Shown: positions 3,469 through 57,461, numbered from the stretch's first letter. The stretch is DNA of 64,000 bases from an uncultured Flavonifractor sp. (GCA_963557075.1 CAUWDA010000007.1:2082-66081); one strand, 5' to 3'. Made by a program: numbers and translations. The notes: generated by a model not told the origin, from the letters alone.

Positions 3469-3936
3469 TTTACGCGGTAAAAGGCTTGCTCTTGGGATTG
3501 ATGATATCGCGCCAGTCCAAATCGCCCCGCGCCCCACCCGATGGTTCCCATCGTGTGGGGACCCCGGTGATTTCAAATGCGGCCGCCGGAAATGAATTCC
3601 GCCGGCCTTCGGCGGCATGAGCCGCCGTACCGCCGGAGGCGGTTTGCTGGAGCGGGGGAGAAGGCCCTCTCTTTACGCGGTAAAGGGCTTGCTCTTGGGA
3701 TTGATGATATCGCGCCAGTCCAAATCGCCCCGCGCCCCACCCGATGGTTCCCATCGTGTGGGGACCCCGGTGATTTCAAATGCGGCCGCCGGAAATGAAT
3801 TCCGCCGGCCTTCGGCGGCATGAGCCGCCGTACCGCCGGAGGCGGTTTGCTGGAGCGGGGGAGAAGGCCCTCTCTTTACGCGGTAAAGGGCTTACTCTTG
3901 GGATTGATGATATCGCGCCAATCCAAATCGCCCCGC
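3469..3936 (-). mobile_element. Tandem array of two 203-bp units (142-nt structured element + 61-nt copy of the mgsA 3' end)
   Basis: mgsA end at 3876-3936, 3673-3733 and 3470-3530; identical elements at 3734-3875 and 3531-3672; GGAATTCA core; segment antisense to the mgsA junction. The repeat is seen directly; the mobile nature is inferred. Confidence 0.7.
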
Positions 3937-4292
3937 TCCAGGCCGTGGATAAGCATCTCGGCGGTGGCCACATTGGTGGCGATGGGGATATTGTACTGGT
4001 CGCACAGGCGGGTGATATACTTCAGATCCGCATCCAGGTCGCTGGACTGGGGATCGGAGAAGAACAGGACCATATCGATCTCATTGTAGGCGATGCGGGC
4101 GCCGATCTGCTGGCTGCCGCCGTGCTCATGAGACAGGAAAAGCTGTACCGGCAGGCCGGTAGCCTCGGCCACCAGACGGCCCGTCGTGTTGGTGGCGCAG
4201 ATCGTATGCTTGGACAAAATACCACAGTAGGCGATACAGAATTGGACCATCAACTCTTTCTTCCGATCATGGCTCATCAACGCGATATTCAT
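3876..4292 (-). CDS. mgsA: Methylglyoxal synthase
   Basis: MNIALMSHDRKK, GGSQQIGARI, RLCDQYNIPIATNVATAE. Some catalytic-loop residues look divergent (SHEHGG). Confidence 0.85.
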   Translation of the reverse strand: MNIALMSHDRKKELMVQFCIAYCGILSKHTICATNTTGRLVAEATGLPVQLFLSHEHGGSQQIGARIAYNEIDMVLFFSDPQSSDLDADLKYITRLCDQYNIPIATNVATAEMLIHGLERGDLDWRDIINPKSKPFTA

Positions 4293-33773: not shown

Positions 33774-33884
33774 AAAAGTAAGGTTTCCTTAAAAGAGTAT
33801 AGCATAGCGTGGAGAATTATGCTATAACAAATAGGAGAAAAGGGCGGCTCTGCCGCCCAAGGGAAAAACGGGGGAGAAGAGGGT

Positions 33885-34328
33885 ATGGAGCACCGGGAGT
33901 ATATGGAGAGAGCCCTGGAACTGGCCCGCCAGGCCATGGCGGAGGGGGAGGTCCCCGTAGGCTGTGTCATCGTAAAGGACGGCCGCGTGGTGGGGGAGGG
34001 GCGCAACCGGCGGGAGACCGGGCGGACTGCCCTGGGCCACGCTGAGATCGAGGCCATCCACCAGGCCTGCCGCACGCTGGGGGGTTGGCGGCTCACCGGC
34101 TGCACCCTCTACGTCACCCTGGAGCCCTGCCCCATGTGCGCCGGGGCCATCGTCAACGCCCGCATCCCGGCGCTGTACTACGGGGCCAGGGACGACAAGG
34201 CGGGGTGCTGCGGCTCGGTGCTCAACCTGTTTGAGGAGCGCTTCAACCACCATCCCCGGATCTACGGCGGCCTGATGGAGGAGGAGTGTACCGCCCTGCT
34301 TCAGGCATTTTTCCAGGAATTGAGGTAG
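33885..34328 (+). CDS. tadA: tRNA adenosine deaminase
   Basis: GEVPVG, HAE, TLEPCPMCAGA. Confidence 0.92.
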   Translation: MEHREYMERALELARQAMAEGEVPVGCVIVKDGRVVGEGRNRRETGRTALGHAEIEAIHQACRTLGGWRLTGCTLYVTLEPCPMCAGAIVNARIPALYYGARDDKAGCCGSVLNLFEERFNHHPRIYGGLMEEECTALLQAFFQELR

Positions 34329-34412
34329 CGGGCCCGCTCTTTTTGTGCATTTAATCAATTTGTAACAAAATAGCCCTAGGTTTTTTAACAACTCCTTGTT
34401 AACATATCACTT

Positions 34413-34493
34413 GCAAGAGAAAAAGCTTCTTTTCATTCTATCCTCCAATCACAGGAGCGGGCAGCGAGCGCAACGCTGCCCGCTTCGCTTTTT
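34413..34493 (+). ncRNA. Putative small RNA copy 1 (anti-RBS/AUG seed + terminator)
   Basis: TAACAT -10 box 7 bp before TGCAAG; pyrimidine seed tcttttcattctatcctcc; GC hairpin + TTTTT; paralog 183 bp downstream. Confidence 0.5.
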
Positions 34494-34595
34494 CAGCGGG
34501 AGTTGACATACTTTTTACACAAGGGGCGGCAGATTTAATGAATTTGTAACACCTTGCGTTTTCTTCGTTAACATCTTTTTCGTATGATAATACCT

Positions 34596-34682
34596 GCAAG
34601 AGACAGTTTCTTTTCATTTCATTGTATCCTCTTTCCTTCGACAGGGGCCGGACGCCAGGAGCAGGCGTCCGGCCCCTGTCGC
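34596..34682 (+). ncRNA. Putative small RNA copy 2
   Basis: TATGAT -10 box 7 bp before TGCAAG; seed tcttttcatttcattgtatcctc; 18-bp terminal hairpin. Confidence 0.5.
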
Positions 34683-34748
34683 GTTGGAAGATAAAAACGC
34701 CGGACTGCCGCAGAATGCGGCAGTCCGGCGTTTCACTGTAAGGGGAGA

Positions 34749-35141
34749 TCACTGTTTGACAAAGGTGAGGGAGGTCCCATCCTGCTCCATAACGATCGTC
34801 TTGCCGTCAAAGGGTACGGTCAGGTCCTCGCCATCCATCGTAAAGATCAGGTCGCTGCCGCTGGCCTTCCAGGTACCGGCCAGGCTGACGCCGTCAGTCA
34901 GACCGCTCATATCCTGGCCGCCCATATCCAGGGAGAAGGTGCCGTCCGTTTTCAATTCCATGAGGATGCTCATGTCCACGCCGGCGGTAGAGGCCAGTTC
35001 CTCCAGATCCATGCTGATGCCGCCGGCATTCATCTCGGTCAGCTTGTAGGTACCGGCAGCGCTGCTGCCGCCACCACCGCAGGCAGCCAGGCTGACGATC
35101 ATGGCCAGGGCCAGAAGGAGGGTGAGTACGCGCTTCTTCAT
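34749..35141 (-). CDS. Small lipoprotein, unknown function
   Basis: MKKRVLTLLLALAMIVSLAAC lipobox; GTYKL and GTWK repeats. Confidence 0.8.
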   Translation of the reverse strand: MKKRVLTLLLALAMIVSLAACGGGGSSAAGTYKLTEMNAGGISMDLEELASTAGVDMSILMELKTDGTFSLDMGGQDMSGLTDGVSLAGTWKASGSDLIFTMDGEDLTVPFDGKTIVMEQDGTSLTFVKQ

Positions 35142-54529: not shown

Positions 54530-57277
<2,748 letters not shown>

Positions 57278-57461
57278 TGATCTTCCAGGGGGCCGGAGGC
57301 GCCCCCGGCGCCTCCGGCCCCCTGGATAGAAAACCGCCGCGCCGCTCTGCGGCACAGCGGTTTTGATACCCCCGGTTTCGTGCCCCGCGGCGCGGGTCGT
57401 GGTGTTTTTCCGAAAAATGAATTTCCGGAAAGCAGATTTCGATTTCCGGATGGAGGGCCCC

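Follow-up and report, generated by a model that had tools for sequence, protein, structure and literature searches.

Within a 64,000-nucleotide stretch of DNA from an uncultured Flavonifractor sp. (GCA_963557075.1 CAUWDA010000007.1:2082-66081; hereafter the window), two repeated units lie between tadA, which encodes a tRNA adenosine deaminase, and a convergent lipoprotein gene. The units occupy positions 34349-34493 and 34533-34687, and their shared blocks are 181-186 bp apart. Each comprises, in order, ATTTAAT, TTGTAACA, TTAACA, a TAnnnT box, TGCAAGAGA, a short variable linker, a CU-rich stretch (TTCTTTTCAT...TATCCTC), and a strong GC hairpin. An earlier note, made from the sequence alone, had described such a pair with a spacing of 183 bp, and we find every unit feature that it listed in its place. 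This exceeds chance: AATTTGTAACA occurs 2 times in 64 kb versus 0.15 expected, and TGCAAGAGA-N2-8-TTCTTTTCAT occurs 2 times in the window versus 0.00 expected. We read the units as two adjacent plus-strand genes for small RNAs (sRNAs) of a conserved family that probably act in trans on translation starts, a reading to which we assign a probability of about 0.68.

A conserved family downstream of tadA

The two units belong to a family conserved in Oscillospiraceae. A scan of one-genome-per-species contigs with a degenerate pattern of the sRNA body detected at least 119 loci, of which approximately 100 are true members, carried by roughly 90 genomes; approximately 20 of the matches listed are chance hits in unrelated phyla that have no other family feature. 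Among the matches listed, to which the following counts of loci also refer, family hosts comprise Flavonifractor, Pseudoflavonifractor, Intestinimonas, Lawsonibacter, Vermiculatibacterium, several Candidatus genera, and uncultured Oscillospiraceae. In 86 of 97 family loci, tadA lies directly upstream on the same strand, and the ATTTAA block often abuts its stop codon. The downstream neighbor differs from locus to locus (a lipoprotein gene, an ABC permease, a TetR-like gene, and others).

Units 1 and 2 represent two subtypes, which occur together in 38 loci, always on the same strand and with unit 1 first. Many seeming unit 2 singletons are preceded by a diverged unit 1. A few genomes, e.g., that of Lawsonibacter celer, carry an additional copy elsewhere, while no further copy was found in the 64-kb window by pattern, promoter matrix, or covariance model. 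The unit 2 covariance model scores unit 2 at 115 bits and unit 1 at 25.6 bits (E = 2e-4). Its match at 57272-57379 (32.9 bits) was rejected as a very strong GC terminator hairpin between convergent genes, without seed or promoter boxes. In one Oscillospiraceae genome, the start region of the sRNA body is itself repeated, with TTGCAAGAGAGAATCATA in three tandem copies (L087:2560-2680).

The 5' region of the units is under strong purifying selection. In an alignment of 75 distinct unit 2 sequences, the first 44 nt, GCAAGAGACAGTTTCTTTTCATTTCATTGTATCCTCTTTCCTT (as RNA, GCAAGAGACAGUUUCUUUUCAUUUCAUUGUAUCCUCUUUCCUU), are identical in 72, versus a TadA identity that falls to approximately 62% across the same loci. 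A separate alignment of unit 1 shows family-wide conservation of GCAAGAGA, CUUCUUUUCAU, and AUCCUCC. The region is 99% identical between strains of the same species, with few substitutions in unit 1. In orthologous loci fetched via lipoprotein homologs that are only 58-71% identical, the unit cores are nearly unchanged, and the spacer and flanks have diverged, with insertions and deletions.

This sRNA family is apparently undescribed. Rfam 15 gave no relevant match in the window (at the gathering threshold), in the region (at E <= 10), or in 15 diverse family loci, and neither the family nor its invariant sequence turned up in the literature searched. Other RNA elements near family loci are a lysine riboswitch (L106:4748-4918; 92.5 bits) and an ssnA RNA motif (L050:1409-1456; 37.4 bits).

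Promoter architecture and RNA anatomy

The upstream regions share a fixed architecture. In an alignment of 122 to 151 distinct sequences, with position 0 at the C of CAAGAGA, 66 nt upstream align gap-free, and the blocks lie at constant distances: ATTTAA at -64 to -59, TTGTAACA at -53 to -46, T[G/T]TTAACA or TTTGTAACA at -32 to -24, and TAnnnT at -14 to -9. All 151 distinct upstream sequences have the TAnnnT box, in most cases with AAT after it, and its best-kept positions are the T, the A, and the final T, as in a -10 hexamer. It lies 7-8 nt before an invariant G at -1, directly in front of CAAGAGA, so that the conserved start reads GCAAGAGA; the transcription starts predicted in the earlier note, 34413 and 34596, agree with this G. 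In a relative (L106) with a better -35 hexamer, a promoter scan calls TTGACT-16-TATCAT at the same place. Furthermore, in approximately 1 Mb of fetched sequence, a sample biased toward sRNA loci, 35 of 35 extra matches to the promoter matrix precede divergent sRNA bodies and 0 precede a protein gene.

The upstream boxes may be binding sites of a regulator. The hexamers TTTAAT (-63), TGTAAC (-52), and TGTTAA/GTTAAC (-31/-30) are in helical phase, 11 bp and 21-22 bp apart. Between the last of these and the -10 box are 10 bp, and the -35 there is weak. The proximal hexamer reads TTAACA in 82 cases, GTAACA in 41, TTCACA in 10, and TTTACA in 3. The box spacing, given previously as 22-23 bp, is 22 bp in the family consensus, where TTTGTAACA repeats at that distance, and 22-25 bp in the units of the window. 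WalR has the consensus TGTWAH-N5-TGTWAH and Bacillus PhoP boxes read TT(A/T/C)ACA, while LytTR regulators bind 9-mers 12-13 bp apart. Judged from the boxes, the geometry would fit regulators of the OmpR family and, equally, those of the LytTR type. An extracytoplasmic-function (ECF)-type promoter (TGTAAC-N15-CGT) was also considered and rejected, as it matches unit 2 only, and not unit 1 or the family.

The predicted RNAs expose a sequence that mirrors a translation start. In unit 2, two anti-AUG triplets (CAT) and an anti-Shine-Dalgarno (anti-SD) motif (TCCTC) fall within the invariant 44 nt. Between a weak 5' hairpin and the terminator, each RNA is predicted to have an unpaired stretch (CAUUCUAUCCUCC in unit 1, CAUUUCAUUGUAUCCUC in unit 2) that is complementary to GGAGGAUA(G/C)AAUG. 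Nearly all members are predicted to form the 5' hairpin (AAGAGA:UCUUUU, approximately -2 kcal/mol), whose loop is the variable linker, and one divergent member combines AAGUGA with UCAUUU, a compensatory pair. Both arms are presumably frozen because the 3' arm lies within the seed and the 5' arm must match it. In rare unit 2 variants and in divergent members, the U-tract and the anti-SD motif are separated by differing numbers of CAUU(U) units. This variation would fit the matching of start sites with differing SD-AUG spacing.

The GC hairpins evolve as terminators of the plus strand. In unit 2, 16 of 17 stem pairs have changed on both sides in a compensatory manner; in unit 1, 10 of 11 have. 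Only on the plus strand are the hairpins followed by T-tracts, with approximately 4 T on average in the 9 nt after the stem, and the 9 nt before the stem contain on average 0.26 A (unit 2) or 2.8 A (unit 1). Given the side of the T-tract and the few A before the stem, the hairpins would terminate plus-strand transcripts only. In L011, a terminator scan calls both on the sRNA strand, and relatives have TTTT after the unit 2 hairpin. Across genera, the sequence is kept at the apex of the unit 2 terminator (34648-34672; CCGGACGYC-AGGAGCR-GRCGTCCGG), in contrast to the freely covarying lower stem. The apical loop, AGGAGC, reads like a Shine-Dalgarno sequence; unit 1 has no conserved loop. By eye, no UACG loop, the editing substrate of TadA, was found in the hairpins.

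We find no coding constraint on either strand of the units. Plus-strand open reading frames (ORFs) of 36 amino acids were rejected, as their frames differ between the units and they have no ribosome-binding site. A small peptide frame of the usually hydrophobic kind found in type I toxin-antitoxin loci is not conserved either, and the peptides are non-hydrophobic. Together, the comparative evidence strongly supports the earlier proposal that the plus strand carries two sRNA genes, each comprising a promoter of its own, a seed of the anti-SD/anti-AUG type, and a terminator, and we consider it very probable from these sequence features that the units are such genes. Their parts and neighbors are listed below.

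Coordinates of the two units and of neighboring features in the window
Feature	Position	Strand	Basis
tadA (tRNA adenosine deaminase)	33885-34328	+	ORF and Pfam dCMP_cyt_deam_1 on identical proteins
Unit 1 promoter region (putative)	34349-34412	+	Ungapped upstream consensus of 122 to 151 distinct sequences
Unit 1 ATTTAAT	34349-34355	+	
Unit 1 TTGTAACA	34360-34367	+	
Unit 1 TTAACA	34385-34390	+	
Unit 1 putative -10, TAACAT (TAnnnT)	34400-34405	+	
Unit 1 TGCAAGAGA	34412-34420	+	
Unit 1 predicted sRNA, ~81 nt (5' GCAAGAGA, variable linker, seed, terminator)	34413-34493	+	
Unit 1 seed TTCTTTTCATTCTATCCTCC	34427-34446	+	
Unit 1 terminator hairpin, then T-tract GCTTTTTC	34454-34486	+	Called by terminator scan
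Unit 2 promoter region (putative)	34533-34595	+	Ungapped family upstream consensus
Unit 2 ATTTAAT	34533-34539	+	
Unit 2 TTGTAACA	34544-34551	+	
Unit 2 CGTTAACA (TTAACA part, 34568-34573)	34566-34573	+	
Unit 2 putative -10, TATGAT(AAT) (hexamer, 34583-34588)	34583-34591	+	
Unit 2 TGCAAGAGA	34595-34603	+	
Unit 2 TTTCTTTTCATTTCATTGTATCCTCTTTCCTT	34607-34638	+	
Unit 2 hairpin, 18 bp, perfect	34639-34681	+	
Unit 2 predicted sRNA, ~90 nt	34596-34687	+	Family alignment of 75 distinct sequences; covariance model
Second hairpin, terminator of the lipoprotein gene (T-tract on minus strand)	34695-34733		Inverted repeat
Convergent lipoprotein gene (MKKRVLTLLLALAMIVSLAAC...), outside the sRNA genes	34749-35141	-	

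Upstream of tadA, the window has an inverted repeat, TATAGCATA / TATGCTATA (33798-33827), and a block, TATGCTATAACAA, is kept 5' of tadA in many relatives. This block probably serves as promoter of tadA or as an operator that tadA shares with the divergent mntP. On the other side of the pair, one Flavonifractor lineage carries a second, paralogous lipoprotein gene (139 amino acids) between the lipoprotein gene and the sRNAs (L009:3095-3514, L010:3097-3516).

Transcripts, candidate targets, and competing explanations

Metatranscriptome contigs cover the locus in seven runs from several studies. For the species of the window, contigs span 34466-34631 and 34482-34629. For Flavonifractor plautii L072, in which the sRNAs are on the minus strand (unit 1 starts at 297 and unit 2 ends near 40), they span 98-280, 92-279, 76-267, 101-251, and 86-241. 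The last of these has a depth of 53, with tadA and the rest of the 1.2 kb uncovered, and in three runs the locus is covered and tadA is not. In some runs, contigs join tadA, unit 1, and the 5' region of unit 2. None of the contigs extends across the predicted start of unit 1 or through the terminator of unit 2. The locus gives RNA well above its neighbors in several independent samples. RNAs of approximately 85 nt are shorter than 100 nt and would be lost in standard libraries, so that the captured form would be a readthrough product of units 1 and 2, whose stable 3' hairpin could not be primed and in whose first hairpin reverse transcription would often halt. Separately, one contig (L072:92) fuses the hairpin-proximal CCCGTCACATGATTG of unit 1 directly to GAGGATAC of unit 2, which may reflect either recombination between the two units in a strain or a chimeric assembly.

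The adjacent lipoprotein gene is the best candidate target of unit 1, and the only specific lead. In duplex predictions, its start (GAAAGGAUGGAU...AUGAAGAAGCG) forms the best unit 1 duplex among the translation starts of the window (-25.7 kcal/mol), and against shuffled sRNAs, the equivalent sites of 13 orthologous loci reach z-scores of -2.3 to -5.2. For unit 2, the lipoprotein-like gene at 19184 (+), with the start MKKRKLLALLLA (AAAAAGGAGGAACATTGGACATGAAGAAGAGAAAA), is a high-ranking predicted pairing site in the window. The tadA gene was rejected as a target, as its translation start varies and is complementary only at the ordinary Shine-Dalgarno sequence.

Several observations weigh against the interpretation as a pair of trans-acting sRNA genes. 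All RNA data are assembled contigs without strand information, and remnants of adapters or template switching gave no strand. Coverage begins at hairpin 1 and ends at the foot of hairpin 2, so that the promoter region of unit 2 is covered and its hairpin is not. Contig ends were rejected as RNA ends, as several coincide with k-1 overlaps, and hence with branch points of the assembly graph, at the invariant block that different species share. The -35 hexamers are weak, and the promoter scan gave no plus-strand promoter in the window itself. Both hairpins are as strong as was noted earlier, although that of unit 2 has no T-tract in this species (CGCGTTGG), where most relatives have one. Unit 2 probably relies on the second hairpin (34695-34733) as a back-up terminator, which has only GTTTCAC on the plus strand; readthrough could therefore yield RNA antisense to the lipoprotein gene. 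With regard to targets, the window holds no exact complement of at least 11 nt to the sRNAs. The many MKK/MKR genes of the window had been suggested as targets, a proposal that is not supported as such: averaged over the translation starts of the window, the duplex energy does not improve on that of composition-matched shuffled sRNAs. Finally, 44 invariant nt exceed the usual length of a seed, and the RNAs may have a partner other than, or in addition to, mRNA start sites.

This last point raises the question of whether the chief partner of the RNAs is not mRNA but something invariant, e.g., the ribosome or a protein. The sequence-conserved apical stem-loop of unit 2, like the long invariant region, is more than normal base pairing would need, no specific target emerged in the window, the 5' stretch may resemble the 3' tail of 16S rRNA, and the AGGAGC loop of unit 2 is similar to a Shine-Dalgarno sequence. 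Variation in the CAUU(U) number, however, would be expected if start sites differ in their SD-AUG spacing, and unit 1 has no conserved loop. We therefore regard a chiefly non-mRNA partner as unlikely. Only slightly less doubtful is the explanation that the units are mainly modules of the tadA 3' untranslated region, with RNA arising by readthrough and processing and with the upstream blocks acting as RNA or processing signals. The tadA linkage, the frequent contact between ATTTAA and its stop codon, and the lack of a clear terminator (we find no convincing one for tadA in the window) all favor it, as do the contigs that join tadA to the units and the inclusion of the unit 2 "promoter" in the covered segment. 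Yet the upstream blocks keep a fixed spacing, with a TAnnnT signature at the right distance from the conserved start, and they are direct repeats rather than paired arms. Extra copies with the same upstream architecture also occur away from tadA (e.g., L015, L029, L063, L077, and L125), and in three runs the locus is covered without tadA.

The remaining explanations concern the strand or the origin of the units. The earlier note had offered, as an alternative, that they are the starts of tiny minus-strand ORFs or leader peptides (MKRSFFSCK*, MKRNCLLQ...), with the shared sequence being a real ribosome-binding site and first codons. Indeed, GGAGGATAGAATGAAAAGA and GAGGATACAATGAAATGAAAAGA are found on the minus strand, where the SD and the AUG are well spaced. 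However, the linker between ATGAAAAGAAG and GTCTCTTGC (plus strand, CAAGAGAC-CTTCTTTTCAT) varies from approximately 1 to 8 nt, which places the invariant GTCTCTTGC in all three minus-strand frames, and a 2-nt insertion or deletion right after codon 4 separates the two ORFs of the window itself. The start codon is lost in L011 (CAT to TAT), and stops shift among strains and species, giving 9 amino acids, 10 amino acids, 58 amino acids, or an open frame. The promoter scan found no minus-strand promoter between the lipoprotein terminator and the ATG of the minus-strand ORF, and the T-tracts of the hairpins lie on the other strand. The frame-breaking linkers and lost codons refute the ORFs, and we now hold this alternative to be highly improbable.

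A non-coding RNA transcribed from the minus strand between the two hairpins is barely more probable. Unstranded contigs would suit either strand, and the boxes of L011 (3088-3116) resemble, on the opposite strand, a promoter TTAACG-17-TACAAT with TG in front. This resemblance is not conserved: most members have TACAAA, which lacks the final T, and such a promoter would point away from the contig-covered body of unit 2. Moreover, no T-tract follows the hairpins on the minus strand, and the promoter scan found no minus-strand promoter upstream of 34638. Least probable of all, to a degree that makes it negligible, is that the units are copies of a small mobile element that inserts at gene ends, as at 3469-3941 in the same genome. 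A tandem of approximately 183 bp right after a gene end would suit such an element, but the one at 3469-3941 is GC-rich and has none of the unit blocks, the unit motifs occur nowhere else in the window, no end of tadA is duplicated, and the position after tadA is orthologous across genera.

We thus retain the reading of two plus-strand sRNA genes, for which the following mechanism can be proposed. Each gene would have an activator-type promoter, with T(G/T)TTAACA abutting a weak -35 and TAnnnT as the -10, and a response regulator bound to the direct repeats would probably switch transcription on. We infer that transcription begins at the G of GCAAGAGA (34413 and 34596) and ends at the GC-rich intrinsic terminator, giving RNAs of approximately 80 to 90 nt. 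Their single-stranded CU-rich stretch would be a mirror of the Shine-Dalgarno sequence, the AUG, and AAA-AGA. The RNAs would then most likely act in trans, binding mRNAs where translation initiates and keeping ribosomes from loading, in the manner of csRNAs and LhrC (see below). That they act on translation start sites is, on balance, our preferred view, while envelope targets together with a two-component regulator are a tentative suggestion. More speculative still, and rather unlikely, is that the family forms the RNA arm of an envelope-sensing two-component regulon that recognizes a whole class of mRNAs, with the AGGAGC loop and the tadA linkage hinting at a further partner.

If this is true, then the RNA pair would throttle many exported proteins and lipoproteins together, via the Shine-Dalgarno sequence, two AUG registers, and the AAA-AGA codons of signal peptides. 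Oscillospiraceae, including Flavonifractor plautii and Intestinimonas, are dominant gut commensals that are hard to study, and to our knowledge almost nothing is known about RNA-based regulation in them. The sRNA pair is sharply defined, highly conserved, and apparently abundant; it has a recognizable promoter code, a fixed address after tadA, cultured carriers such as Flavonifractor plautii ATCC 29863, Pseudoflavonifractor capillosus ATCC 29799, Intestinimonas massiliensis, and Lawsonibacter celer, and one candidate target, and thus lends itself to direct testing. The pair could give access to a post-transcriptional regulon as well as to the regulator that recognizes the TTGTAACA boxes. RNA databases would gain a family that they lack, and the annotation of many gut genomes and metagenome-assembled genomes would benefit.

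Comparison with known sRNA systems

As far as can be told from its sequence, each unit has a promoter of its own, a Rho-independent terminator of its own, and no coding function, as is generally the case for trans-acting sRNAs. Adjacent paralogous sRNA genes are known from enterobacteria, where OmrA and OmrB share a 5' seed, are controlled by an OmpR-type regulator, and repress envelope proteins. The tadA-linked pair likewise consists of two adjacent paralogous genes with a common 5' seed, but has no sequence relation to OmrA/OmrB, which are Gram-negative, Hfq-dependent, and have a seed that is not an anti-SD/anti-AUG mirror.

A closer likeness is seen with LhrC1-5 of Listeria monocytogenes, which are multicopy and clustered, and whose CU-rich motifs bind the ribosome-binding region of cell-envelope mRNAs (PMC4132741). 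Expression of LhrC depends on a two-component system, LisRK, that senses envelope stress (PMC4132741). Multicopy clustered sRNA genes and a CU-rich stretch are also characteristics of the tadA-linked family. In contrast, LhrC has three redundant UCCC-type motifs (in a loop, a single strand, and the terminator), whereas the tadA-linked family has one linear anti-SD/anti-AUG stretch. Furthermore, there is no Rfam match to LhrC, and the terminator loop of the tadA-linked unit 2 is purine-rich (AGGAGC).

The CiaR-dependent small RNAs (csRNAs) of Streptococcus, ccnA-E, are multicopy and partly adjacent, 50-200 nt long, and encoded in intergenic regions by an activator-type promoter followed by a terminator (PMC3091779). 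Their unpaired region is complementary to the Shine-Dalgarno sequence and AUG, and a half-site for the response regulator lies 10 bp upstream of the -10 (PMC3091779). Like LhrC, they are driven by an envelope-related two-component system, CiaRH. The tadA-linked units have the same predicted layout: an intergenic promoter and an intrinsic terminator within 250 nt, an unpaired anti-SD/anti-AUG region, and GTTAAC or GTAACA ending 10 bp before TAnnnT. The regulator box itself differs. The CiaR box is NTTAAG-N5-TTTAAG, with an essential final G (PMC3091779), while the tadA-linked family has no partner hexamer 11 bp farther up and a final C rather than G. Instead, it has TTTAAT-N5-TGTAAC at -63 to -47, with the next box, a single proximal one, 22 bp away. 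The tadA-linked family also differs from the csRNAs in that it has no sequence or Rfam similarity to them, resides in Oscillospiraceae, is fixed after tadA, and has a much longer invariant 5' region. By analogy, the pair would thus represent a new family of a known kind of regulator, whose closest analogs are the csRNAs and LhrC.

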